Shown: positions 43,175 to 55,253 of the stretch, piece by piece | Numbering within the stretch: the first letter of the stretch is position 1 | Layout of the letters: the number at the start of each line of letters is the position of its first letter | Origin: Desulfotalea sp. | Lineage (GTDB): Bacteria > Desulfobacterota > Desulfobulbia > Desulfobulbales > Desulfocapsaceae | Assembly (NCBI GenBank): GCA_051531995.1 | Contig: JAOPTU010000012.1 | Span: 28,430-92,429 of the forward strand | Length of the DNA stretch: 64,000 bases | Reading direction: 5' to 3' | Translations under genes and position numbers: made by a program | Notes under the pieces: model-generated | Seen by the model: only the letters and a program-made list of their open reading frames with translations | Databases searched by the model: none | Told to the model about the DNA's origin: nothing

Positions 43175-43630
43175 ATGGGTATTAAAATAGTTTGTAAAAA
43201 TAAAAAAGCGTATCACAATTATTCAATATTGGATACTTACGAGGCTGGCATGGTTTTGTCTGGTCCCGAGGTAAAGTCTCTTCGTGGTGGGCGTGGTAAT
43301 ATCACCGATGGCCATGTAGCAATTAATCAGCGTGGTGAGGCAATGTTGTATAATGTTCATATTGCCCATTATCTTTTTGCTACTCAAAACCCAAATGAGC
43401 CTTTAAGAGTACGTAAACTTCTTCTACATAAAAGAGAGCTACGTAAACTAATTAGTAAATTAAACGAAAAAGGACTTGCCCTCATCCCACTGAAGATATA
43501 CTTTATTGAAAATGGCAAAGCAAAAATTGAACTGGGTCTTGCAAAAGGTAAGAGACAGTATGATAAGCGGGCTACTTTGAAAGAGCAGCAAAGTAACCGT
43601 GACCTTGCGCGGGTTATGCGTAAGGGATAA
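43175..43630 (+). CDS. smpB: SsrA-binding protein
   Basis: 151 aa. KNKKAYHNY...[15 protein letters not shown]. Confidence 0.95.
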
Positions 43631-43637
43631 ATCCTAC

Positions 43638-44005
43638 GGGGGCGAAACGGCTTCGACGGGGATGTGTAAGCTCTACGTTGCATGTCGAGCAACTGTCAGC
43701 TCGTAAAAAAGACGGAAAAAAATATAATCGCAGACGATTATAACTACGCAGTAGCAGCTTAATAACCTGTAATACTGCCGCTTCGCCAGTCACTCTCCCA
43801 TAGGGGCTGGATTTGAGGCGTCGACTAAAATGGGATAGCTAATCAGCGGTGTTCTGGTCACTGAGGTGCGAAATTATACAGAATAGTCTATCACTGTCTA
43901 TGTTCCGACGGAAGGTGCTAGGCGAAATTTAAGTACGGAACTAAACATGTAGATACGAGAGGGGAGCATTTGCGGACGCGGGTTCGACTCCCGCCGCCTC
44001 CACCA
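43638..44005 (+). ncRNA. ssrA: tmRNA
   Basis: 5' GGGGGCG pairs with 3' CGCCTCC-ACCA, including G3:U. GGTTCGACTCCCGCC T-arm. Tag ORF at 43730-43765 reads GCA GAC GAT TAT AAC TAC GCA GTA GCA GCT TAA TAA = ADDYNYAVAA. Confidence 0.95.
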
Positions 44006-44531: not shown

Positions 44532-45797
44532 TTATTTTTTATTAACTTTCTTAAAATCTATAACTTCACAACGTGATTTCTTTTGCATGCTAACTACCGC
44601 TCTTGTTGCTGCTATCTTCTCTTTATGATCAGGTAAAAAATATCTTTCAAAAGCTTTGCTGGTGTGCCCGGTGACGTTGGCCTTTATTTGTTCGGGGGTC
44701 ATGCTTTTACCCAGGGCCGTGACCGTACTATGTTTAGTTCCCGCATATAGGGCCACATCTTCAATACCAATTTTTTTTGCGGCTCTCTTCCACCAAACGT
44801 TTAAATACTTGGGACCAAATCTAGAATTAGCCTTAACCCCTTTTAGTGGTTTTATATGCCTAAAGAAAAACAAGCTGGGCATTGCTGGTGCCGCTTTCAT
44901 CTCTTCTTTGAAAAGTTCGCCATGTTCTGGTAATAGATGAATAAATTTAGGTTCTTTTTCTTTAGGCTTTGGGAAAACAATCCACATTTCATTAAGATTT
45001 ATATCTTGTTCCCGCACATTCAATAATTCACTCGGCCTTACCCTTGGATATAAAGAAAGAATTGTAATGCCCAACCAGATTCGAGGGTTTTTTTCGTAAG
45101 ATATTCTTTTTACTTCATCGATTATTAGTTGTTGGTCTTCAATTGATAATATCTTTTTCATGGCCAAGGTGAAATTGACTGCAGGGAAAATAGGCATTTC
45201 AAGCCCAGACTTTCTTTTCTCCCGCCTTACAATCCACGTCCAAAAATCATGTAGAACCGTTTTCCAGTTAAATAATGTTTTATTGCTTATGCCATGGTCG
45301 GCACAGAAAAAATCTTCTATTTCTCCTTCAGCAATTTCTTGTATCAACATCAAATCCCAACCCTTGCCAGCAATTTCTAAAACGTGGTCAATGTGCCTCA
45401 CCTGTTTTGGCGTTATGTCAGTATTTCTTTTTCTCTCTACAAATTTTTTTCTAAGTGATCCGAAAGAAAGAGGTTGTTCTTTGGCCCACTGGCGTTGATC
45501 AAACTTGCCTTTATCCGATTGCACACGTAAATACGTTAGGTGTCTTTCAGCCTCCACCACTGTTGCAAAACGTTTTGTATGATGTCTACCAAAGCGCACC
45601 ATTGAACGGCCACGCCATTCAACATTTGGATGGCGTGGGCAAGAATGAAAACCTCGTCCCTCAACATATTTTAGTGATTCACCGCAAATATGGCACTTCT
45701 GCGAAACGTAAATACTGCCGTGCATGCAAAACCCTCCCATGGGAACAATAGCGTTCTTGTAGGTCTTGCTATTGGTATGGAAGTGGTTTTTTGTCAA
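44532..45797 (-). CDS. int: tyrosine-recombinase phage integrase
   Basis: 421 aa (TTG start in the track; internal ATGs are possible). C-terminal catalytic region YPRVRPSEL, TKHSTVTAL, GHTSKAFERY. N-terminal Cys/His cluster CHICG...CPRHP. Confidence 0.8.
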   Translation of the reverse strand: MTKNHFHTNSKTYKNAIVPMGGFCMHGSIYVSQKCHICGESLKYVEGRGFHSCPRHPNVEWRGRSMVRFGRHHTKRFATVVEAERHLTYLRVQSDKGKFDQRQWAKEQPLSFGSLRKKFVERKRNTDITPKQVRHIDHVLEIAGKGWDLMLIQEIAEGEIEDFFCADHGISNKTLFNWKTVLHDFWTWIVRREKRKSGLEMPIFPAVNFTLAMKKILSIEDQQLIIDEVKRISYEKNPRIWLGITILSLYPRVRPSELLNVREQDINLNEMWIVFPKPKEKEPKFIHLLPEHGELFKEEMKAAPAMPSLFFFRHIKPLKGVKANSRFGPKYLNVWWKRAAKKIGIEDVALYAGTKHSTVTALGKSMTPEQIKANVTGHTSKAFERYFLPDHKEKIAATRAVVSMQKKSRCEVIDFKKVNKK

Positions 45798-46205: not shown

Positions 46206-48845
46206 CTATTTTTTAAATATCCAGCAACGAACACTTTTTTTAATGCTCTTACTGGTCATAACTCGGTTAATAGCTTCTAGTTTGTAACGCTTGCTGCCCT
46301 TGAGCATCGCTTTCAGTTGGGTGCTATCCAATACCTCTTGCCCCCAATGCAAACAACGCTCTCGAAAATGGTTAAGATTAATGGCGTAAATGCTCTCGTC
46401 CTCTCCGGCGTGGTTTAGTGAGGTTTTGGAATCAGTATTCCTTGAGCTTATGTAAAAGAAAGTTTCCCAAAATTTCTCGACTATCGGGTGATCGGCGGCA
46501 ATGCGTTCCTCGCGCAAAGTGGCCCGGCTCTCGATATAAGCCACAAAATCGGCCAGCATTTGTTCGCTGAAACTAGGAAAAATCATTCCTAAGCAGTTCC
46601 CCATGGCGGCAATTTGGGCATGGGTTTGGACAATACGAATATTGCTTACATTTTTAAGGCCAGCAAAACGGGTTTCGTATTGTTGATATGCCTTGAAATA
46701 TCGATCTAGTAATTGTCTTTCACGGGACAAAACCGAATCAAGAAAGCCACCAACACTAGCGGTAGTCTGTAGCTCAAACCACTTGGCCAATTCCCTAGAA
46801 CCTTGTTTATGATGTTTTTTGTCCATGTGAACGTGAACAATTCGAGAAAGAAGTGCCTCGGAACCATCAACCTCCGCATTTTGACTAAAAGCCAAAGCCC
46901 CACGAAAAGGGCTTTCCCTTGTTTCATTTCCTTTAGTCGCCACACCAATTACGCCAGTGTTTCGACCATTATAAAAATCTTTGAATTCATCAAAATTAAA
47001 CTGTTTACCCTTTGGCCCATCGTCACCAGTTCCACGGTCAGATTCAACAATAACGGCAGGCATATTGGCGGTTTGAGAAAAGAAACGTCTACGCCCTGCA
47101 GCGGATGTTTTTTGCACATCAATGCCCTCGGTATCATCACGGCCAAGAAGCTTCCAACAAAATTCAAGAGCGGTGGTCTTTCCCGATCCCGGCTCACCTG
47201 TAAATTCTAAAAAGGTTAGCCCTTTCTGTTTTGCTCGTATCTGCTGTGCGAAAAGTGATCCAAGATAAAAAGCCATCACGGCCACACCTTGGTGATGGAA
47301 TGCTTGAAAATATTTATTGAAAAAATCGGGGGCGGCTTCACCGTTGGTGGATATATTTATCCCGGCTAGATTGCTTTTTACTCCCTGGTCCTTTAGTGGA
47401 AAATAACCGTGCGGGTTTAGATCAATCTTTTTTCCTGCTTGCCATGCATTGTCTGGGAAAATGTAGGCTTTATTGTCGGGGCAGTATCCCACAAAATTAA
47501 TGGATTGAACCTCAAGCATTTTGCCATCTAGCCAACGTCTGACCAGTATGTCAAAGTCTTCATTGCTACCAGAAAAACGGGCACCATTTGTTTTATTGAG
47601 TAGTGCCGTTTTAAAGTTTTTAGAAGAAGAAAGAGCGGTGCCATCAAGGGCTATTAGTTTTTCTTTAGTGCCATTTTGGTAAACTATTTTAAAAACATAA
47701 AGTTGCTCGTCTAATACTTCGTCTTTCTCCATATATAAAAAAGTGGGTAAAACATTACAGATTTGAAAAGCAGAAGAATGGTTCCTGAAATAATCAAAAA
47801 CCTCTGTGTTCCTGTCCTTGTCGGTAACGGTTAAACCAACTTGTTCCAACGCATCGGCAAAACTTTTTTTGATCTTCACCGCATAAATTGCCTTGTTAAA
47901 ATCAACAAGTAAACTTGAAAGGCTAGGGCGTTTAAGTAGCATGATAAAAGCTTTTTCTTCCACGCTCTTGGCCATAAAAAGTTGGCCACGGTGAAAGCTG
48001 TTATCAATTAAGGAATCGTTCAACCATCCTTCTTTCCAATAATCATCCCAGTCTTTGCCGTTGTCCGGAAGCAAACAAACAGCCACCTTTTCACCCATCT
48101 TTTCGATAAGGTCGGCATGTTTTTGCATATACTTACGACCAGCTTTGTCGCCATCGTAGGCAAGCACCCATGTAATATCTTTGCCGACATGTTTTTTTAT
48201 AAAATTAATGGCGAAATTAGAACTACCTATGGCTGCAACTGCATTTTTTTTGCCATGAATTAGAGCTAAAGCGTGAAAAATTCCCTCAGTAATGAATATT
48301 TCTCCATCTTTCGCCACTTTTAGGTTAGGCGGTTGCCACACATCTCCTTTGTAAATAGATTTATCATCTTTCCTTTTGCCGCCTATATTTGCTTTTTGGC
48401 CATCTTCCTTTGTTTCGCCTATTAGCCTTTCCCAAAAACGTGTCTTTTCAGCATCCAAATAAAAACGAATAGTGGAAACCGCCTTGCCACTTTTTAACTT
48501 ATAATTTTCTTGGCTATAAAAAGGCCGACAAACGACCATCTTAAAACCACGATCCTCTTTTAAATAAGCATCGGCGGTGGCCTTTGGGTTTGTTGGTGTT
48601 GCCGGGTGTCTCTTTTCCCAATTTTCAAAAAGGTGGGGTAGTAGCTCTTTAGCGGTAAAGCTCATGCCACATTTGTTTTCTCTACTGCAGGCGATTCGGA
48701 ACGGTTTTGACATACTGGTATAAAGTTCTTTTTTTCCGCAGTTGGGGCATTTACCATAACGCAAAAAACCGCCTACCTGCTTAAAAGAAAACCTACTATC
48801 ACCAGCAAGGGCCGTGGCAATCTCGCCGGCTCGATTATCTGACAT
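46206..48845 (-). CDS. phage primase-helicase (zinc finger + TOPRIM + P-loop NTPase)
   Basis: Start set at ATG 48845 (MSDNRAGE). CPNCGKKE zinc finger. TOPRIM-like IFITEGIFHA and YDGDKAG. Walker A GEPGSGKTT. Confidence 0.8.
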   Translation of the reverse strand: MSDNRAGEIATALAGDSRFSFKQVGGFLRYGKCPNCGKKELYTSMSKPFRIACSRENKCGMSFTAKELLPHLFENWEKRHPATPTNPKATADAYLKEDRGFKMVVCRPFYSQENYKLKSGKAVSTIRFYLDAEKTRFWERLIGETKEDGQKANIGGKRKDDKSIYKGDVWQPPNLKVAKDGEIFITEGIFHALALIHGKKNAVAAIGSSNFAINFIKKHVGKDITWVLAYDGDKAGRKYMQKHADLIEKMGEKVAVCLLPDNGKDWDDYWKEGWLNDSLIDNSFHRGQLFMAKSVEEKAFIMLLKRPSLSSLLVDFNKAIYAVKIKKSFADALEQVGLTVTDKDRNTEVFDYFRNHSSAFQICNVLPTFLYMEKDEVLDEQLYVFKIVYQNGTKEKLIALDGTALSSSKNFKTALLNKTNGARFSGSNEDFDILVRRWLDGKMLEVQSINFVGYCPDNKAYIFPDNAWQAGKKIDLNPHGYFPLKDQGVKSNLAGINISTNGEAAPDFFNKYFQAFHHQGVAVMAFYLGSLFAQQIRAKQKGLTFLEFTGEPGSGKTTALEFCWKLLGRDDTEGIDVQKTSAAGRRRFFSQTANMPAVIVESDRGTGDDGPKGKQFNFDEFKDFYNGRNTGVIGVATKGNETRESPFRGALAFSQNAEVDGSEALLSRIVHVHMDKKHHKQGSRELAKWFELQTTASVGGFLDSVLSRERQLLDRYFKAYQQYETRFAGLKNVSNIRIVQTHAQIAAMGNCLGMIFPSFSEQMLADFVAYIESRATLREERIAADHPIVEKFWETFFYISSRNTDSKTSLNHAGEDESIYAINLNHFRERCLHWGQEVLDSTQLKAMLKGSKRYKLEAINRVMTSKSIKKSVRCWIFKK

Positions 48846-49071
48846 GTTCGCCACCCTCCAACGATTGTTGAACATCCGCCAAATCCGCTTTGACTAGCTC
48901 AAAACTTTTGTGCCCTTGTGCGTTTTTGACATCGGCAAAATGTAGTTGTAATGCTTCGACTAAAATTATTGTGCTGTCCAAGGTTCTGGCTAAACGAATA
49001 ATTGTGGCAGGTGGGTAACATTGCTTTTCTGATGTGGTGCCGGTTGTCTCACTCATTATGGCCTCCATCAA
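48835..49071 (-). CDS. hypothetical protein
   Basis: 78-aa ORF, translationally coupled between the regulator and primase genes. Confidence 0.4.
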   Translation of the reverse strand: MMEAIMSETTGTTSEKQCYPPATIIRLARTLDSTIILVEALQLHFADVKNAQGHKSFELVKADLADVQQSLEGGEHVR

Positions 49072-49525
49072 TCTGGGCCTTAATGGTCACATAAGCAGAA
49101 CCAATGGTTTGAAGTGCTTCGAGGCATTCTCTCTCACAGTCAATAAGCTCTTTCTTTGTTAGTTTCCCGTCCGCTATTGCGCTGGCAAGGGCAGAGGTTG
49201 CCTCGGCACCTTCCTTGGCCATAGAAGCGCAAATAAGAAGCCAATCCCGCAGGTCTTCTTTTGGTTCTGGTAGGGGAAGACAAATTTTATTGAAGTCTGC
49301 ACAAAGATTTTCAAGGCTGGTTGTATCGCCGGTGATTTCAATAATTTTTATATAATCAAGAAAACCAAGCTTATTAGTACGTCGACCAATTGACTTAGGG
49401 TCAATATCCGCATAAAGGGTGCCGGTTGCTATTCCTAGCTCGTCGGCAAGAGCTTTGACCCCGTAATTCTTTACGGTATCTTGTATCAGTTTTAATGCTT
49501 TTATTTGTCTTGGTGTGTTCAACAT
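49049..49525 (-). CDS. phage HTH regulatory protein (CII/CP76-like by size and position)
   Basis: 158 aa. HTH-like ALADELGIATGTLYADI. Second gene of the early leftward operon. Confidence 0.4.
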   Translation of the reverse strand: MLNTPRQIKALKLIQDTVKNYGVKALADELGIATGTLYADIDPKSIGRRTNKLGFLDYIKIIEITGDTTSLENLCADFNKICLPLPEPKEDLRDWLLICASMAKEGAEATSALASAIADGKLTKKELIDCERECLEALQTIGSAYVTIKAQIDGGHNE

Positions 49526-49656
49526 GATTCATGCTCCTTTTTTGTCGTATAAAACATTGTGGAAAGGTGCTTTAATTACACTGCGAAAAACTAGGTTAAC
49601 AAAATTAGGCGTTGTAGAAGCGGTTATAAACAGTTGTAACCGTTACATTTGTGCTT

Positions 49657-49890
49657 TTATTTTAATTTCGGCCCTGTACGCAATTTAGTGCCTTCACTGT
49701 TAGCCCATATTTCTTTTATAGGAGTTCGAATGATGTCGGATATCGCTATCCTTATTTTGGTGCTCGTCGTTTGCCCTTTTATGACAAGATGCACTGTCGG
49801 TGCGCTGACCTTGCATAATCTAGCGACATCTGCCTGGTTGTATCCTTTGTCTTCAAGTGCTCTTTTTATTTCGGTAAATTTCATAGTCAT
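49657..49890 (-). CDS. Ner/Cro-like DNA-binding protein
   Basis: 77 aa. YNQADVARLCKVSAPTVHLVIKG HTH and a trailing IKEIW motif resembling the Mu Ner/Nlp family. Divergent from the repressor-like gene. Confidence 0.6.
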   Translation of the reverse strand: MTMKFTEIKRALEDKGYNQADVARLCKVSAPTVHLVIKGQTTSTKIRIAISDIIRTPIKEIWANSEGTKLRTGPKLK

Positions 49891-49925
49891 TGCGATCTCT
49901 CCTCATTATTATTAGGTTAAAAGCG

Positions 49926-49945
49926 TAGGCTAATTGGGTAGCCTA
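49926..49945. promoter_or_regulatory. candidate operator palindrome in the immunity switch
   Basis: TAGGCTA-attggg-TAGCCTA, perfect 7-bp arms, in the 104-bp divergent intergenic region. Confidence 0.3.
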
Positions 49946-49994
49946 AAGACTAAAGTACCAGATTCGGAACACAACACAAGGGTTAATTTCAGAT

Positions 49995-50414
49995 ATGGAA
50001 CAATTCTCTCCTGAGGATCTTCGCCTAAAATTTATTGAGCTACTAGATTCTAAACGTGGAACTCAAGCGAAATTGGCCAAGTCTATAGGTAAAAAAGCTA
50101 GTTTTTTCACTCACATAAGAGACGGACATGCTGTGAACGCAATGCACCTTAAGGCTGTGGGAATTGTTTTTGGTGGGGGTACTGTTTTAAATTTATTGGA
50201 TGTGCAAAATAATTCCGAATCTGAAACAAAACTTGATCCTATAAATGTTTGCCTCGCAGAAATAAAAACAAACAATCCTAAGATTTACGAGAAAGTAGAG
50301 ACATATATTGCAGGTGCTTACGATGCAGCCAAGGCCATGGATTCTGAAGCTTGGAAGGTTTTTAGCTCGAAGAAAGTCGTACAGGAAACCGAGGCCGACG
50401 GTACGAACGGTTAG
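49995..50414 (+). CDS. cI-like HTH repressor candidate (no S24 peptidase domain)
   Basis: 139 aa. HTH GTQAKLAKSIGKKASFFTHIRDG. Divergent from the Ner/Cro-like gene. Confidence 0.5.
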   Translation: MEQFSPEDLRLKFIELLDSKRGTQAKLAKSIGKKASFFTHIRDGHAVNAMHLKAVGIVFGGGTVLNLLDVQNNSESETKLDPINVCLAEIKTNNPKIYEKVETYIAGAYDAAKAMDSEAWKVFSSKKVVQETEADGTNG

Positions 50415-50570
50415 GCACTGATTCTATTTACCATCATATCCTTGCATGTGTCTATCTATTAGATATAACTGGAAATATTGTTGAGAAAACAGGAAGGAAA
50501 GATATAAGCCTTAGAGCGATTAAATCGCATGGTGGGTTTATTTTAATATTAAACTAGTGGAGATTTACAA

Positions 50571-51044
50571 GTGTATACTAGAAACTTCATTTTTGTGTTT
50601 CTGCTTTTCCTACTTCCTAGCCTTTGCTTTGCAAAATATGGGTATAACAGAAAAGACTTTCATTTTAATAGTTACAAGCCATACACCTATACAGGTTGGT
50701 ACACTGGTAAACCCTGTTCTAAAATAGATGTCGACCACGTTGTTTCTTTAAAAGACGCCTACGAGAGTGGTGCTTCAGAATGGACTAGTGAAGAAAAAGC
50801 TAGGTTTGCCAATGATCGATTAAACCATGTCTCATCTTGTGCAAGTGTTAACCGTTCGAAAGGATCGTCTACCCCTAAAGATGTAATTCGCAAAGCAAAT
50901 GACGGGCGTGGTGTCGAATTTGAGTTTATTGATTTATGCAGTTACTTAAAGAAGTATCACAAGGTTAAAACTAAATATGGTTTGTCATTTGATAATAATG
51001 ACAAAGTTGTTTTTGAAAGATGTGATTTTATTATAGCTTTGTAA
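50571..51044 (+). CDS. secreted DUF1524-type HNH/His-Me finger nuclease
   Basis: 157 aa, GTG start with GGAG upstream. Signal peptide MYTRNFIFVFLLFLLPSLCFA. Core IDVDHVVSLKDAYESGASEWT..FANDRLNHV..SVNRSKGSSTP. Confidence 0.65.
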   Translation: MYTRNFIFVFLLFLLPSLCFAKYGYNRKDFHFNSYKPYTYTGWYTGKPCSKIDVDHVVSLKDAYESGASEWTSEEKARFANDRLNHVSSCASVNRSKGSSTPKDVIRKANDGRGVEFEFIDLCSYLKKYHKVKTKYGLSFDNNDKVVFERCDFIIAL

Positions 51045-51146
51045 AGGAAATTTTTAGTGTCTGTGATTTTGAATAAAAATGTAAAAAAACGATATAATCG
51101 TAAGATTGCATTATGTTTACCAACTAAAAAATTAAAGGAGCCATTA

Positions 51147-52052
51147 ATGGGAAGTTCCGAACAGTATACTATAGAAGTACCATATCGAATAAAATATACG
51201 AACAAAGATCCTGTTCCTGTTAAGGAACTTATCAAATCATTGGAATCTTATGAGAAACTTCTCTGTAGAACGGTTCCATTTGTTACCAGTGTATGTAATG
51301 GAGCTGAAATTGTAGATATACAGGTTTATGTAAACAAAGTGCAATCCGGTAGCTTACTAGAAGATTTCTTGGTAAAAGTTGTTTTTAAAGATAAGGACAA
51401 CTATGAAAAAGCTTTAGAGGTTGGTGCAAAAATGTTTGATAAAAACGCTGTAATAACAAGTGCTGTTTGTGTCGGTGTTGCCGCCTATATTAGTCTTGGT
51501 GTCTATAATGCTTGTGTTAATAGTGGGAACAAACAGCAACCTATAAGTATCAATGCATACAACGGGGCTATTGTTCAGACTGGCGGCACAATGAATATTC
51601 CAGAAGATCTAATTAATGATATAGTAAATAAAACAAATGACAAGGCGGCTCTTACCAAAGAAGTGTTGGGGGTAATTGCTCCAGCTCAATTAGAAGAAGG
51701 TGCGATTATTGAGGTAGGTGAGCTGGAAACTTTGAACATCCCAAATGATGTTATTATTGATACACCACGTGACTATGTCCCTCCCGAAAAGTTTTTAGAG
51801 AATGAAACTCTTATTAAGGTAAAAATATTAATATCAGCAAGCGACAAAGATAAACATGCTAGGTGGGCTGGTGTTGTTCCAGGTCATGTAGAGAAAAGAA
51901 TAGACTTTGTGCTGAATGAAGCAATTAGCCCATCTCGCCACCATGGCAAATTGGAGGCCTTTGCAGATATAATAATTACCAGTGAAAGAAAAAATAAGGA
52001 TAAAGAATTGCTTCCCAAAAAAATAGAGATAATAAAATTTTACTCAAACTAG
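51147..52052 (+). CDS. single-pass membrane protein, unknown family
   Basis: 301 aa from an ATG with AAGGAG and a 6-nt spacer; the track ORF starts at an upstream GTG. One central hydrophobic helix AVITSAVCVGVAAYISLGVY. No motif recognised. Confidence 0.5.
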   Translation: MGSSEQYTIEVPYRIKYTNKDPVPVKELIKSLESYEKLLCRTVPFVTSVCNGAEIVDIQVYVNKVQSGSLLEDFLVKVVFKDKDNYEKALEVGAKMFDKNAVITSAVCVGVAAYISLGVYNACVNSGNKQQPISINAYNGAIVQTGGTMNIPEDLINDIVNKTNDKAALTKEVLGVIAPAQLEEGAIIEVGELETLNIPNDVIIDTPRDYVPPEKFLENETLIKVKILISASDKDKHARWAGVVPGHVEKRIDFVLNEAISPSRHHGKLEAFADIIITSERKNKDKELLPKKIEIIKFYSN

Positions 52053-52063
52053 AGTGTCTTTTG

Positions 52064-52885
52064 TTACCCCATCAGCCCCTTAACCCTGCCATTATGCACA
52101 CCTACCTCACCCGCTTTTTCTGATATAGGGCCGCTTTCATTTGGCTTTTCGGTGGTGGGGTGGGAATGATCCGCAATTATTTGTAGTGCTAGTTTCACAT
52201 CTTCAATAGCCCCTGTAAGTTCCTGCAGTAAATTGGCTCCTTCACCACCAGGGGCCTTTATCGTAATAAGCGGTGCTTCTAGTAAAATATTAGTACCAGC
52301 CTTTATGCTTTTGCTTGTTCCAACTTCCTCACTACTATTAGCCCCTGCTTTTTCTGTTACATTACTTCCAGCAGAACGAACAAGATTTTGCCCCGCATCA
52401 TGGCTTATATTTCCACCAGCTTTATCCGTAATATTTGTATCAGTTTCTCGGTTCCAATCGCCTGAAGGATTAACAGTTTGAAATACACCGGGTTTTTGTT
52501 GCCACCTTGCCATATTATCCGGCACCGCTGGTAGCTTTAAGCCCATAGGGTAAACATGCTGAATAACAGGGTGGGCCGGGTTGCCCTCAATCCAGCGCAC
52601 CGTTACAATTGTTCCGGGGCGTGGATACATGAAAAAACCTTCTTCATTTCCACCCATGGGCAAGGGTAGGGGGACTGCTTCATATATGGGCAAATCAGTA
52701 ACACGGTTGCCGTTTACGTCAACAATCTCAATATCAGCGGCGAACATTGGTTCCATCCTGTCGCAAGTTTCACCGCCCGTTGGTGGGTTGGCAATTTTGA
52801 CAATCCGGGCATAACGGTCAAGATGGTACCCGTCTGCAAGTTCGGGGAACATTCTTCTTACAATGCGTCCAATTGCGTTTCGCAT
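52064..52885 (-). CDS. baseplate central spike (gpV/gp5-like)
   Basis: 273 aa. OB-fold-like PRPGTIVTVRWIEGNPAHPVI. Repetitive beta-helix AGGNISHDAGQNLVRSAGSNVTEKAGAN. C-terminal HSH motif like the spike-apex HxH. Confidence 0.6.
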   Translation of the reverse strand: MRNAIGRIVRRMFPELADGYHLDRYARIVKIANPPTGGETCDRMEPMFAADIEIVDVNGNRVTDLPIYEAVPLPLPMGGNEEGFFMYPRPGTIVTVRWIEGNPAHPVIQHVYPMGLKLPAVPDNMARWQQKPGVFQTVNPSGDWNRETDTNITDKAGGNISHDAGQNLVRSAGSNVTEKAGANSSEEVGTSKSIKAGTNILLEAPLITIKAPGGEGANLLQELTGAIEDVKLALQIIADHSHPTTEKPNESGPISEKAGEVGVHNGRVKGLMG

Positions 52886-53541
52886 TTCACCACCATTTCG
52901 TGTCCTATAAGTTGAATAGCTGTTATAAAATTATCGTTTATTTTCATACCGGGGCGAAGACCGGGTACAACGGCTATTGTTTTGGTTCCGTCTAGTTGAA
53001 CATCTGTAAAAAGTTCTTCCGGAACAGGCACATTACAGTCGGGCCACTTGCTATCTTGCCATGATCCGACATATACAACCCCGTCCTCTTGTTGCTGCCA
53101 TATATATTCATCAATACCAAAAACCCTACCTAGTGAGTCTAGGCCGTGGATTCCGTTGCCCATTGTTTGAAATACCGGCACGGGTGTTTCGCCACCTTCA
53201 GACCTGAATTGCAGGCCTGTCTTTCTACTGTAAATAGAAAGCACATCAGCCAAACTTACCCTACGTGCTGAAACGGGAATTTTGTTCCACAACACGGCTG
53301 TTAGTTCGCGACAAAAGATTCTTTGTTGTTTGGCATCCACGGTTATTGATTTTTCAATATATCCCGTGAAAAAATTCACCATGCTAGTTGTGCCCACCAT
53401 GAAATCGACCACGCCAGAAAGGGCAGATTTAGCCTGCACAGTAAAATCAGCCCTGCCGGGTGTCGATATGTCAATTGCGGTATGATCTTTCACTAGGGGC
53501 AATGACTGGTCGTTCACAGTGATATTTTTGTTTATCTTCAT
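52858..53541 (-). CDS. putative baseplate/hub protein
   Basis: 227 aa, tightly coupled upstream of the spike gene. Called by position only. Confidence 0.3.
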   Translation of the reverse strand: MKINKNITVNDQSLPLVKDHTAIDISTPGRADFTVQAKSALSGVVDFMVGTTSMVNFFTGYIEKSITVDAKQQRIFCRELTAVLWNKIPVSARRVSLADVLSIYSRKTGLQFRSEGGETPVPVFQTMGNGIHGLDSLGRVFGIDEYIWQQQEDGVVYVGSWQDSKWPDCNVPVPEELFTDVQLDGTKTIAVVPGLRPGMKINDNFITAIQLIGHEMVVKCETQLDAL

Positions 53542-54022: not shown

Positions 54023-54796
54023 TTAGTTTGTTTTATAATTTGAGATTAATAATTCAATTCTCTTCTTTTGCCTTGATTTTGCGCCTGGATATATTGTGTA
54101 TTTCAACTCAACTTCCTCAACATTGAAGCCTTTAAAAATCTGTCTTATTTCCGGCGTATCATTAATAGTTAAAAGGAATTTGCCTTTTATATTTTTTAAT
54201 ATCTCGGCTAGGTCTAAAAAGTCTTGTTCTTCAAAATCATTTTTATAAGCCGGTATTTTCCAATATGGCGGGTCTAAGAAAAAGAATGTATGCGGGCGGT
54301 CATATTGTGGGATTAGTTTTCGGAAATCTCTGCATTCTATCTGCACTTGCATAAGCCGTTCCCATGCTTGTTCTAAAGTGTTTTGCAGGGTCAATAGATT
54401 TAAACCCGGTTTTTTAGTTGTGCTTATGCCATACCCTTGTCTTGTGACCTTGCCACCAAAACTATTTTTTTGAATATATAAATATCTTGCGGCTCTTTGT
54501 ATATCTGTTAGCGTTTCTGGGTTTGTTTCTTTATTACGGTTAAATTCCGACCGAGACACTAACGAAAATTTAAACTGTCTATATAGTTCTTCAGGGTGGT
54601 GTTTTACTGACCTATAAAGCGTAACTAGGTCATTGTCTAAATCGTTAATAACTTCTAAGTGAGATGGTTCTTTGCCAAAAAAGACACTAGCACCACCGGC
54701 GAACACTTCCACATAACAACCATGTTCCGGCATTTTACTAATTATTGTTTTTGCAAGTCTCGATTTTCCACCAAAATATGGGATAATTCCTGTCAT
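54023..54796 (-). CDS. dam: DNA N6-adenine methyltransferase (D12/Dam class), orphan
   Basis: 257 aa. YFGGKSRLA, EVFAGGASVFF (SAM binding), LDPPYW catalytic motif. No adjacent restriction gene. Confidence 0.85.
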   Translation of the reverse strand: MTGIIPYFGGKSRLAKTIISKMPEHGCYVEVFAGGASVFFGKEPSHLEVINDLDNDLVTLYRSVKHHPEELYRQFKFSLVSRSEFNRNKETNPETLTDIQRAARYLYIQKNSFGGKVTRQGYGISTTKKPGLNLLTLQNTLEQAWERLMQVQIECRDFRKLIPQYDRPHTFFFLDPPYWKIPAYKNDFEEQDFLDLAEILKNIKGKFLLTINDTPEIRQIFKGFNVEEVELKYTIYPGAKSRQKKRIELLISNYKTN

Positions 54797-54977: not shown

Positions 54978-55253
54978 TCAGTGATCTTGCATCAACTTCT
55001 GTTCATCCACCCAACTCTTTGCCCTTGCTAATTCAGCACGACAATCATTTCCAGAAGCCTCAGAGCGCAAAATAAATTCTGCTACTTCGCCGCCTGTCAT
55101 TGCTATTGGCAACGATGGTGGATCATCACAAGCAAGCTCAAAAGGCGGGTAAACTGGAACTCTATTCGTTACCGTTTTCAGCACCGTTTCGGTTTTCCCG
55201 CACGATGTCAAAAGCGGCAACAGTAGAAGGATGAACAGGGCAATCTTTTTCAT
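54978..55253 (-). CDS. outer-membrane spanin (Rz1-like lipoprotein)
   Basis: 91 aa. Lipobox LTSC, Pro-rich mature part. The start is embedded in the 3' part of the Rz-like gene in another frame. Confidence 0.6.
   Translation of the reverse strand: MKKIALFILLLLPLLTSCGKTETVLKTVTNRVPVYPPFELACDDPPSLPIAMTGGEVAEFILRSEASGNDCRAELARAKSWVDEQKLMQDH

Follow-up and report, generated by a model that had tools for sequence, protein, structure and literature searches.

The question raised by the end of one prophage operon is whether two neighbouring genes constitute a new two-gene defence system or are separate passengers. The operon lies in a window of 64,000 nucleotides (nt) from a Desulfotalea contig (JAOPTU010000012.1), the window being the whole stretch of DNA that was analysed. 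Behind the gene at the repressor position, one gene encodes a predicted exported nuclease and the other encodes a 301-residue member of the family PHROG 4506. The comparisons described here do not support a new two-gene defence system, and the lasting result can reasonably be taken to be the PHROG 4506 gene as a candidate prophage exclusion gene. The likelier account overall is that positions 50571-52052 form a variable accessory ("moron") slot with two independent cargo genes, in which the PHROG 4506 protein is a candidate exclusion or abortive-infection factor. The locus comprises the following features:

49995 to 50414, plus strand: open reading frame (ORF) for a 139-residue protein at the repressor position, with a helix-turn-helix (HTH)-like motif at about residues 22-42, read by eye
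50415 to 50570, no strand: spacer between repressor and nuclease genes, with the unique perfect palindrome TATCTATTAGATA at 50453-50465
50571 to 51044, plus strand: cargo gene 1, a His-Me nuclease of the GmrSD_C/DUF1524 type (PF07510), 157 residues, GTG start
51045 to 51146, no strand: spacer between the nuclease and 301-residue genes, 102 nt with a guanine-plus-cytosine (GC) content of 24.5%, with a promoter-like TTGAAT-18-TATAAT at 51069-51098 (score 10/12)
51147 to 52052, plus strand: cargo gene 2, a PHROG 4506 member of 301 residues (phrog_4506, unknown function, E-value 3.1e-64)

The ORF positions, both ribosome-binding sites (RBSs) and the 11-nt gap at the end of the locus were confirmed in the window. 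All three ORFs (139, 157 and 301 residues) are on the plus strand as the initial annotation had them, and its strong AAGGAG RBS and 11-nt distance to the late tail operon are both exact. The AAGGAG lies 6 nt 5' of the ATG at 51147, a GGAG lies 8 nt 5' of the GTG at 50571, and 11 nt separate the stop of the 301-residue gene (52052) from that of the converging baseplate gene.

The initial annotation also treated the two genes as partners: the exported nuclease and the 301-residue membrane protein would form one two-component exclusion system, in which the partner serves as a gate, sensor or immunity protein that exposes incoming DNA. A conceptual parallel is found in phage T4, where Imm diverts superinfecting DNA to host endonuclease I. 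The genes are adjacent and co-oriented in the window, both fall below the GC content of the phage backbone, and the transition from the 3' end of the nuclease gene to the 301-residue gene is common to a sister HP1-like phage at locus L008, so this arrangement is ancestral to at least two phages. However, the gene content of related loci argues against such a system. Locus L015 is a sister HP1-like phage in which CII (75%), Cro (63%), the repressor-position protein (52%) and the baseplate protein (67%) are identical to the stated extent with those of the window; its order is cII-cro, then repressor and nuclease (76% identical), then baseplate, and it has no 301-residue gene. L008 carries an intact 301-residue homolog (58% identical) beside a nuclease remnant consisting of residues 80-151 only, which lacks the catalytic D55-H56, and DNA homology to the window begins abruptly in the middle of the nuclease gene. 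A tblastn search with the nuclease against the 13 other PHROG 4506 contexts found no nuclease relative, and the chromosomal nuclease homologs are stand-alone genes in ordinary neighbourhoods without such a partner. In addition, the two genes are 102 nt apart, the AT-rich spacer between them carrying a promoter-like site, and a cytoplasmic immunity protein would be unnecessary for an exported nuclease. Co-occurrence of the pair was looked for elsewhere and essentially never found, and a two-component system is considered very improbable. Judged from sequence comparison, the two cargo genes are most likely functionally separate and independently acquired, and a paired system is not supported.

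Exchange within the slot is visible in L008 itself. At L008 311-1737, the 5' half of the nuclease gene is replaced by genes for a HEPN pEK499_p136-domain protein and for a 297-residue protein without a family match, possibly a PD-(D/E)xK-like nuclease when read by eye; this segment resembles a candidate defence or toxin cassette brought in by exchange. Where L008 1905-3121 corresponds to window 50806-52052, the dead nuclease fragment is 86% identical at the amino acid level and the adjacent intact 301-residue gene 58%. Because the fragment is closer to the window than the 301-residue gene is, the slot is read as a recombination mosaic and not as a product of uniform divergence. The separate spacers, with a palindrome in one and a promoter-like site in the other, hint that the two cargo genes may be controlled separately. 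The promoter-like site between the nuclease and the 301-residue gene is kept in L008 as TTGAAC/TATCAT; promoter-like sites in this region are no commoner than in shuffled sequence, which makes the site weak evidence.

The initial annotation could name no family for the 301-residue protein, and this no longer stands: the protein belongs to phrog_4506, a family of unknown function, over its full length (residues 4-296 against profile positions 2-296 of 300). When 1.84 billion representative proteins were searched with a family profile, 553 clusters at 50% identity were identified (E-value at most 1e-3), nearly all of them about 300 residues long and matching end to end. An exact-sequence look-up of the 301-residue protein of the window gave no record. 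The gene is present in 150 of 5,426 complete E. coli genomes (2.8%), where its PGAP label is always "hypothetical protein", and in isolated coliphages such as 1H12. A further large homology search with a broad alignment added one new protein among the best 8,000 candidates, and a scan of a genome collection with a narrow alignment gave 2 loci. The 301-residue protein has no Pfam, NCBIfam or PADLOC match, and a Pfam scan of 135 PHROG 4506 members returned scattered chance-level matches only. PADLOC 2.0, comprising known and candidate defence models, was touched by 2 of the 135 members at the candidate model PDC-S42, and 10 divergent members searched singly gave nothing. A search of the available literature library for phrog_4506 and WP_000076840 found no mention of either. 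A virion or housekeeping protein was considered for the 301-residue protein and rejected, as no such family matched and its genes occupy varying positions outside the structural modules. The earlier statement that neither cargo gene looks like a phage structural or replication gene holds in that no virion or housekeeping match was found.

An AlphaFold2 model of the 301-residue protein was obtained from an alignment of 135 diverse PHROG 4506 members, an earlier run on 18 close homologs having been poor (predicted local distance difference test, pLDDT, 65). The model is confident and forms a single compact body with a pLDDT of 94.4 and a predicted template modelling score (pTM) of 0.86. It consists of an N-terminal alpha/beta domain, a long hydrophobic helix at residues 101-125, a helical region with a highly conserved helix, IxAxxGAIVQTGGTMN (the GAIVQTGG helix, residues 133-148), and a C-terminal beta domain. 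The best-conserved residues of the family (A231, D233, D235, W240, R251 and D274, an ASDxD..W..R motif) are located in the C-terminal beta domain, where the acidic cluster may bind a metal or a ligand; the motif matched no enzymatic family. P207 is likewise among the most conserved residues, and residues 231-274 correspond to window positions 51837-51968. Foldseek found no meaningful PDB neighbour of the model (template modelling, TM, score at most 0.23), and a sequence-profile search of the PDB found no solved relative of PHROG 4506. The helix at 101-125 is Gly/Ala-rich, uniformly hydrophobic and conserved in position, has a Kyte-Doolittle value of at least 1.6 in 111 of the 135 members and has a hydrophobic moment of 0.11. 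A transmembrane helix is plausible for this model segment, and a buried or latent membrane-inserting helix is equally plausible.

The placement of PHROG 4506 genes offers a clue to their role. Fifteen distinct genomic contexts were examined, and in 10 of the 15 the gene lies in the repressor-side operon, 6 of these 10 having it directly behind the repressor. Placement directly 3' of a co-oriented S24 and/or HTH repressor, with gaps of about 40-130 nt, is seen in E. coli lambdoid prophages and phage 1H12, in the Mu-like prophages L004/5/18, L016, L017 and L019, and in L027. The E. coli homolog WP_000076840.1 stands exactly between cI and N, where lambda carries rexA-rexB. Further down the repressor-side operon, with small cargo genes in between, the gene is found in the window, in L006/7 (where a lipoprotein gene separates repressor and homolog), in L009-11 and in the P2-like L022-24, whose operon ends against converging tail genes as it does in the window. 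The initial annotation had likened the location to the rexAB slot on the repressor side, and this comparison is borne out by WP_000076840.1 and by the homologs behind repressors in Mu-like, P2-like and other prophages. The adjacent repressors are only 27-35% identical or unrelated, whereas the PHROG 4506 homologs are 60-85% identical; between L004 and L016 the values are 28% and 85%, respectively. Because the repressors are far more diverged than the PHROG 4506 homologs, the linkage has persisted through changes of immunity type and does not go back to the inheritance of one block.

Other genes accompany PHROG 4506 in these loci, including those for HEPN and WYL proteins. At L022 2618-6040, an HTH repressor gene is followed by genes for 75-residue, 91-residue and 321-residue (WYL domain) proteins, the PHROG 4506 homolog, a 36-residue ORF and the converging gpD/gpU, and in phages of this group cargo genes seem to collect generally at the junction of repressor and tail genes. 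Placements of other kinds were also recorded. L008 has the gene in the same slot as the window, on a contig that ends before any repressor; a Pseudomonas phage has a member 3' of the Q antiterminator, a cyanophage has one before its lysozyme gene, and in one context a member adjoins recA. At L025 5001-7946 and in L026, a distant member (25% identity) is found among insertion sequence fragments, beside an M78 (ImmA-like) peptidase, DruA (Druantia) and an AAA_15/AAA_21 ATPase; this setting is defence-island-like and outside any recognisable prophage.

Tight placement behind repressors, at 40-130 nt in many prophages, might also be expected if PHROG 4506 belonged to the phage's own lysogeny or induction circuitry, for example as a sensor or modulator at the membrane that adjusts how stable the repressor is or how readily the prophage is induced. 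The conserved single-protein architecture with no recognisable effector domain is in keeping with this explanation. However, the repressors concerned are of very different types (S24 autocleaving, short HTH-only and an unclassified 139-residue protein), and a partner dedicated to repressors should have co-evolved with a single type. The gene is also absent from the sister phage L015, which has the same switch, and from lambda, and its other locations include sites behind a Q antiterminator, ahead of a lysis gene, within an island that contains Druantia and beside recA. A role in lysogeny circuitry is regarded as distinctly unlikely.

On the favoured account of independent cargo in an accessory slot, the stretch 50571-52052 would close the repressor-side transcription unit of an HP1/P2-like prophage that is integrated at the tmRNA gene. 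The PHROG 4506 protein would most likely be made in the lysogen and act without a partner at the inner membrane or in it, by means of its conserved hydrophobic helix. Its role there would be superinfection exclusion or abortive infection, which would make it a functional counterpart of lambda RexAB in a single protein. A bolder version, to be held tentatively, is that PHROG 4506 represents a new and widespread single-protein exclusion or abortive-infection system with a fold not seen before that replaces RexAB in lambdoid, Mu-like and P2/HP1-like immunity operons, with its Gly/Ala-rich helix or hairpin inserting or oligomerising in the inner membrane once a superinfecting phage is sensed.

Several observations weigh against the favoured account. 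Because no consistent PADLOC match was found, the argument for a defence role of PHROG 4506 is one of position, and 5 of the 15 contexts are not beside a repressor. The Hessa free energy of the helix at 101-125 is marginal, at +1.4 kcal/mol for the window protein and about +2.2 kcal/mol for the family median, and the compact model (pTM 0.86) is just as compatible with this segment being the buried core helix of a soluble protein. The initial annotation had proposed a central transmembrane helix between two soluble domains; the conserved hydrophobic helix stands, and a transmembrane helix is plausible, with a marginal translocon score and a model that is a single compact body. No strong terminator or promoter was found that would delimit the transcription unit. 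Lastly, the nuclease remnant in L008 indicates that the two cargo genes were neighbours in a common ancestor, and a loose functional synergy between them is possible.

The nuclease has a named family. The 157-residue protein matches PF07510, GmrSD_C (formerly DUF1524), at residues 45-141 with an E-value of 2.4e-6 and 27.9 bits against a gathering cutoff of 23 bits. The gene call in the protein database begins 8 codons later and yields 149 residues; the 157-residue start is preferred as it fits better with the RBS and with the charged N-terminus of the L015 homolog. More than 140 homologs were found, mostly of about 150 residues and from marine metagenomes. Conservation was judged on an alignment of 17 homologs, in which D55, H56, N81, D82, H86 and N94 (a DH..ND..H..N motif) are invariant, as are the cysteines C49, C90, C123 and C151. 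All 17 have an N-terminal hydrophobic signal sequence that ends right before a conserved GY(D/N)R(K)DF. In the window protein the predicted signal peptide covers about residues 1-21, with a charged N-terminus (R4), a hydrophobic stretch and cleavage after CFA (CFA|K). The protein is therefore predicted to be an exported, disulfide-stabilised, stand-alone His-Me nuclease with a mature domain of about 130 residues. The initial annotation had called a DUF1524-type His-Me core, which the above-cutoff PF07510 match and the invariant catalytic motif bear out, and its prediction of export gains, as a prediction, from the family-wide signal sequence and the four invariant cysteines. Profile and sequence searches of PDB sequences with the nuclease found nothing.

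A subgroup of the chromosomal homologs (P0110, P0119 and P0127; locus L014), of about 200-214 residues, has an additional segment rich in Cys and His, SHGGGLNAEGCHNNRKTGDYHCH, together with a Pro-rich linker. The segment and linker sit between the signal peptide and the nuclease domain and do not occur in the phage copy; the extra segment suggests a metal-binding or anchoring module.

The nuclease gene was probably captured from a family that is mostly stand-alone and chromosomal in marine gammaproteobacteria. After Sec export and oxidative folding, its product would cleave DNA non-specifically in the periplasm or outside the cell of the lysogen. The benefit may be to limit foreign-DNA uptake, or to remodel or scavenge extracellular DNA; that the enzyme attacks injected phage DNA directly is possible but has no support. 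A further explanation is that both genes are lysogenic-conversion or host-fitness cargo, with the nuclease scavenging nucleotides or phosphate or modulating biofilm or competence, and the 301-residue protein having some other envelope-related role. The nuclease family is overwhelmingly chromosomal, lies in ordinary neighbourhoods of marine bacteria and is rare in phages, with 6 distant matches in 50,697 phage records (INPHARED) and 8 IMG/VR loci. The GC content of the cargo also equals that of the host, and streptococcal prophages are known to carry secreted DNases that benefit the host (cited in PMC5714182). Nothing counts against this explanation for the nuclease, where it overlaps with the favoured account. 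For the 301-residue family, in contrast, a phage-directed role is favoured by the strong bias toward the immunity operons of prophages and by neighbours that are occasionally of the defence-island kind, and as an explanation of both genes host fitness is considered unlikely.

Base composition had been put forward as a sign of separate acquisition. The spot counts of 18/60 GC at 51181-51240 and 29/60 at 52081-52140 are exact. The nuclease gene has a GC content of 35.4%, the 301-residue gene 36.0% and the repressor-position gene 40.2%, compared with 41.6% for the prophage backbone and 35.7% for the host average. The cargo genes lie at about the 5th-6th percentile of the prophage backbone and equal the host average. 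The proposal of a low-GC cassette holds to the extent that the cargo is below the backbone; the difference is modest and host-like, and the repressor gene, at 40.2%, lies outside the low-GC stretch.

The initial annotation called the 139-residue protein "cI-like". Its position opposite cro and cII, its HTH-like motif and the inverted repeat of the switch region lead us to infer a repressor, and the position and motif behind the label stand. The label has no family behind it, as profile and sequence searches of Pfam, PHROG, NCBIfam and PDB gave no match, and PADLOC yields only weak matches to candidate regulator models. The L015 homolog is 52% identical and has the same position. In the spacer that follows, the 13-nt palindrome TATCTATTAGATA occurs once in the 64-kb window, and both spacer and palindrome are conserved in L015 (as TATCTACTAGATA, L015 about 2040-2052). 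The palindrome could be a regulator-binding site that controls the nuclease gene. The spacer at 50415-50570 contains neither a terminator-like site nor an Rfam match, and an Rfam scan of 49400-52300 gave nothing credible.

The wider setting of the locus is defined by four further features:

43638 to 44005, plus strand: tmRNA (ssrA) gene found by ARAGORN, tag peptide ADDYNYAVAA; integration site and left prophage end
49049 to 49890, minus strand: early (lytic-side) regulators, a Cro-like HTH gene and a CII/CP76 regulator, transcribed away from the cargo genes toward the primase gene
49891 to 49994, no strand: divergent switch region, with the inverted repeat GGCTA-n6-TAGCC at 49928-49943 as a candidate operator
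52064 to 52885, minus strand: baseplate/spike-like protein at the end of the late operon, phrog_4011 "baseplate protein" (E-value 7e-66), with a weak Phage_base_V match

The prophage, from about 44 kb onward, is HP1/P2-like and inserted beside the tmRNA gene. smpB is found at 43175-43630, just 5' of the tmRNA gene, and the prophage begins immediately 3' of smpB and ssrA, which is a classic ssrA integration. A tyrosine integrase is encoded at 44532-45797 on the minus strand. The leftward early operon includes a primase gene (46206-48875, 889 residues, Toprim domains), the CII/CP76 gene (49049-49525, matching PF06892 Phage_CP76 with an E-value of 9e-17) and the Cro-like HTH gene (49657-49890, 77 residues, matching Pfam HTH_3 and phrog_769). 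The late operon converges from the right and encodes baseplate proteins, an HP1_ORF34-family protein, a Dam methylase, a tail fibre, Baseplate_J and a tape measure protein, as well as an SLT transglycosylase that is a candidate lysis enzyme. A homologous baseplate gene delimits the same cargo slot in L015 and L008. The Dam methyltransferase gene (D12 class, 54023-54796, minus strand, 35.3% GC) lies in the late operon between the HP1_ORF34 baseplate gene and a 91-residue ORF (54978-55253) with a lipoprotein-like signal sequence; GC-poor like both cargo genes, it is probably another acquired accessory gene.

Within the switch region, the GGCTA-n6-TAGCC pattern is one of only 2 occurrences in 64 kb, and an equivalent inverted repeat is kept in the sister phage L015. 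The repeat at 49928-49943 is a probable operator. A 13-nt direct repeat, CAGATTCGGAACA and CAGATATGGAACA, spans 49959-50002 with its copies 31 nt apart, the second overlapping the start codon of the repressor-position gene, and the inverted and direct repeats together are candidate operators. A nucleotide search of 49000-53000 against 50,697 phage records gave no match.

The nuclease is a new member of an already known protein group and ordinary cargo, though unusually placed. The DUF1524 group already includes putative extracellular nucleases, and disulfide-dependent activation after export has been described for His-Me nucleases (PMC5714182). The protein resembles GmrSD- and SspE-type DUF1524 nucleases in matching PF07510 above the cutoff and in its His-Me catalytic motif. 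It differs from them in being stand-alone, in having a signal peptide and two likely disulfides, and in lacking a DUF262/GmrS partner or NTPase. A GmrSD type IV restriction enzyme was rejected on the same grounds, as only the nuclease domain is present, with no DUF262/GmrS (ParB-like NTPase) fused or adjacent; the gene's neighbours encode the 139-residue HTH-like protein and the PHROG 4506 protein. Vibrio Vvn/Dns, EndA-type nucleases and S. pyogenes Spd1/Sda1 are similarly exported, non-specific beta-beta-alpha-metal nucleases, the activity of the 157-residue protein being predicted. The latter is much smaller and belongs to another His-Me subfamily, DUF1524 rather than the Endonuclease I or DRGH type. 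Vvn is reported to block foreign-DNA uptake, and Spd1 and Sda1 are prophage cargo, in the works that the relevant passages of PMC5714182 cite.

PHROG 4506 can be compared with BstA, with P22 SieA/SieB and with S. aureus PdpSau, which are likewise single prophage accessory genes and follow the same logic of a moron near the immunity region. These proteins act on superinfecting phages and some are membrane-anchored, as described in the portions of the reports drawn on here (PMC8585504, PMC10883804, PMC10127798). Unlike them, PHROG 4506 has no PADLOC 2.0 match, no KilA-N or other Pfam domain and no PDB fold neighbour. It is a large, uniform and structurally novel family that is tied to repressors in at least three unrelated temperate-phage lineages and absent from the defence databases searched, and its occurrence in E. 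coli and coliphage 1H12 makes it experimentally accessible in the best genetic system.

Genes expressed from the immunity operons of prophages, rexAB, sieB and bstA among them, have time and again proved to be anti-phage genes that influence which phages can infect lysogens, and lysogen immunity genes matter to phage therapy and phage ecology. An hhalign comparison of the 135-sequence PHROG 4506 profile with RexA and RexB gave a probability of about 0.1%, and membership in either family was rejected. The difference from lambda RexA and RexB is further that PHROG 4506 is one protein and not two, with one marginal hydrophobic helix where RexB has four transmembrane helices, and its exclusion role is that of a candidate. 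The likeness is in the slot between cI and N, which the E. coli homolog occupies, and in the expression in the lysogen that is expected of it as of rexAB, with the membrane as a likely site of action. If PHROG 4506 is indeed a defence gene, its fold would be new among effectors, and the Rex system, itself still poorly understood, would gain a compact counterpart consisting of one gene.

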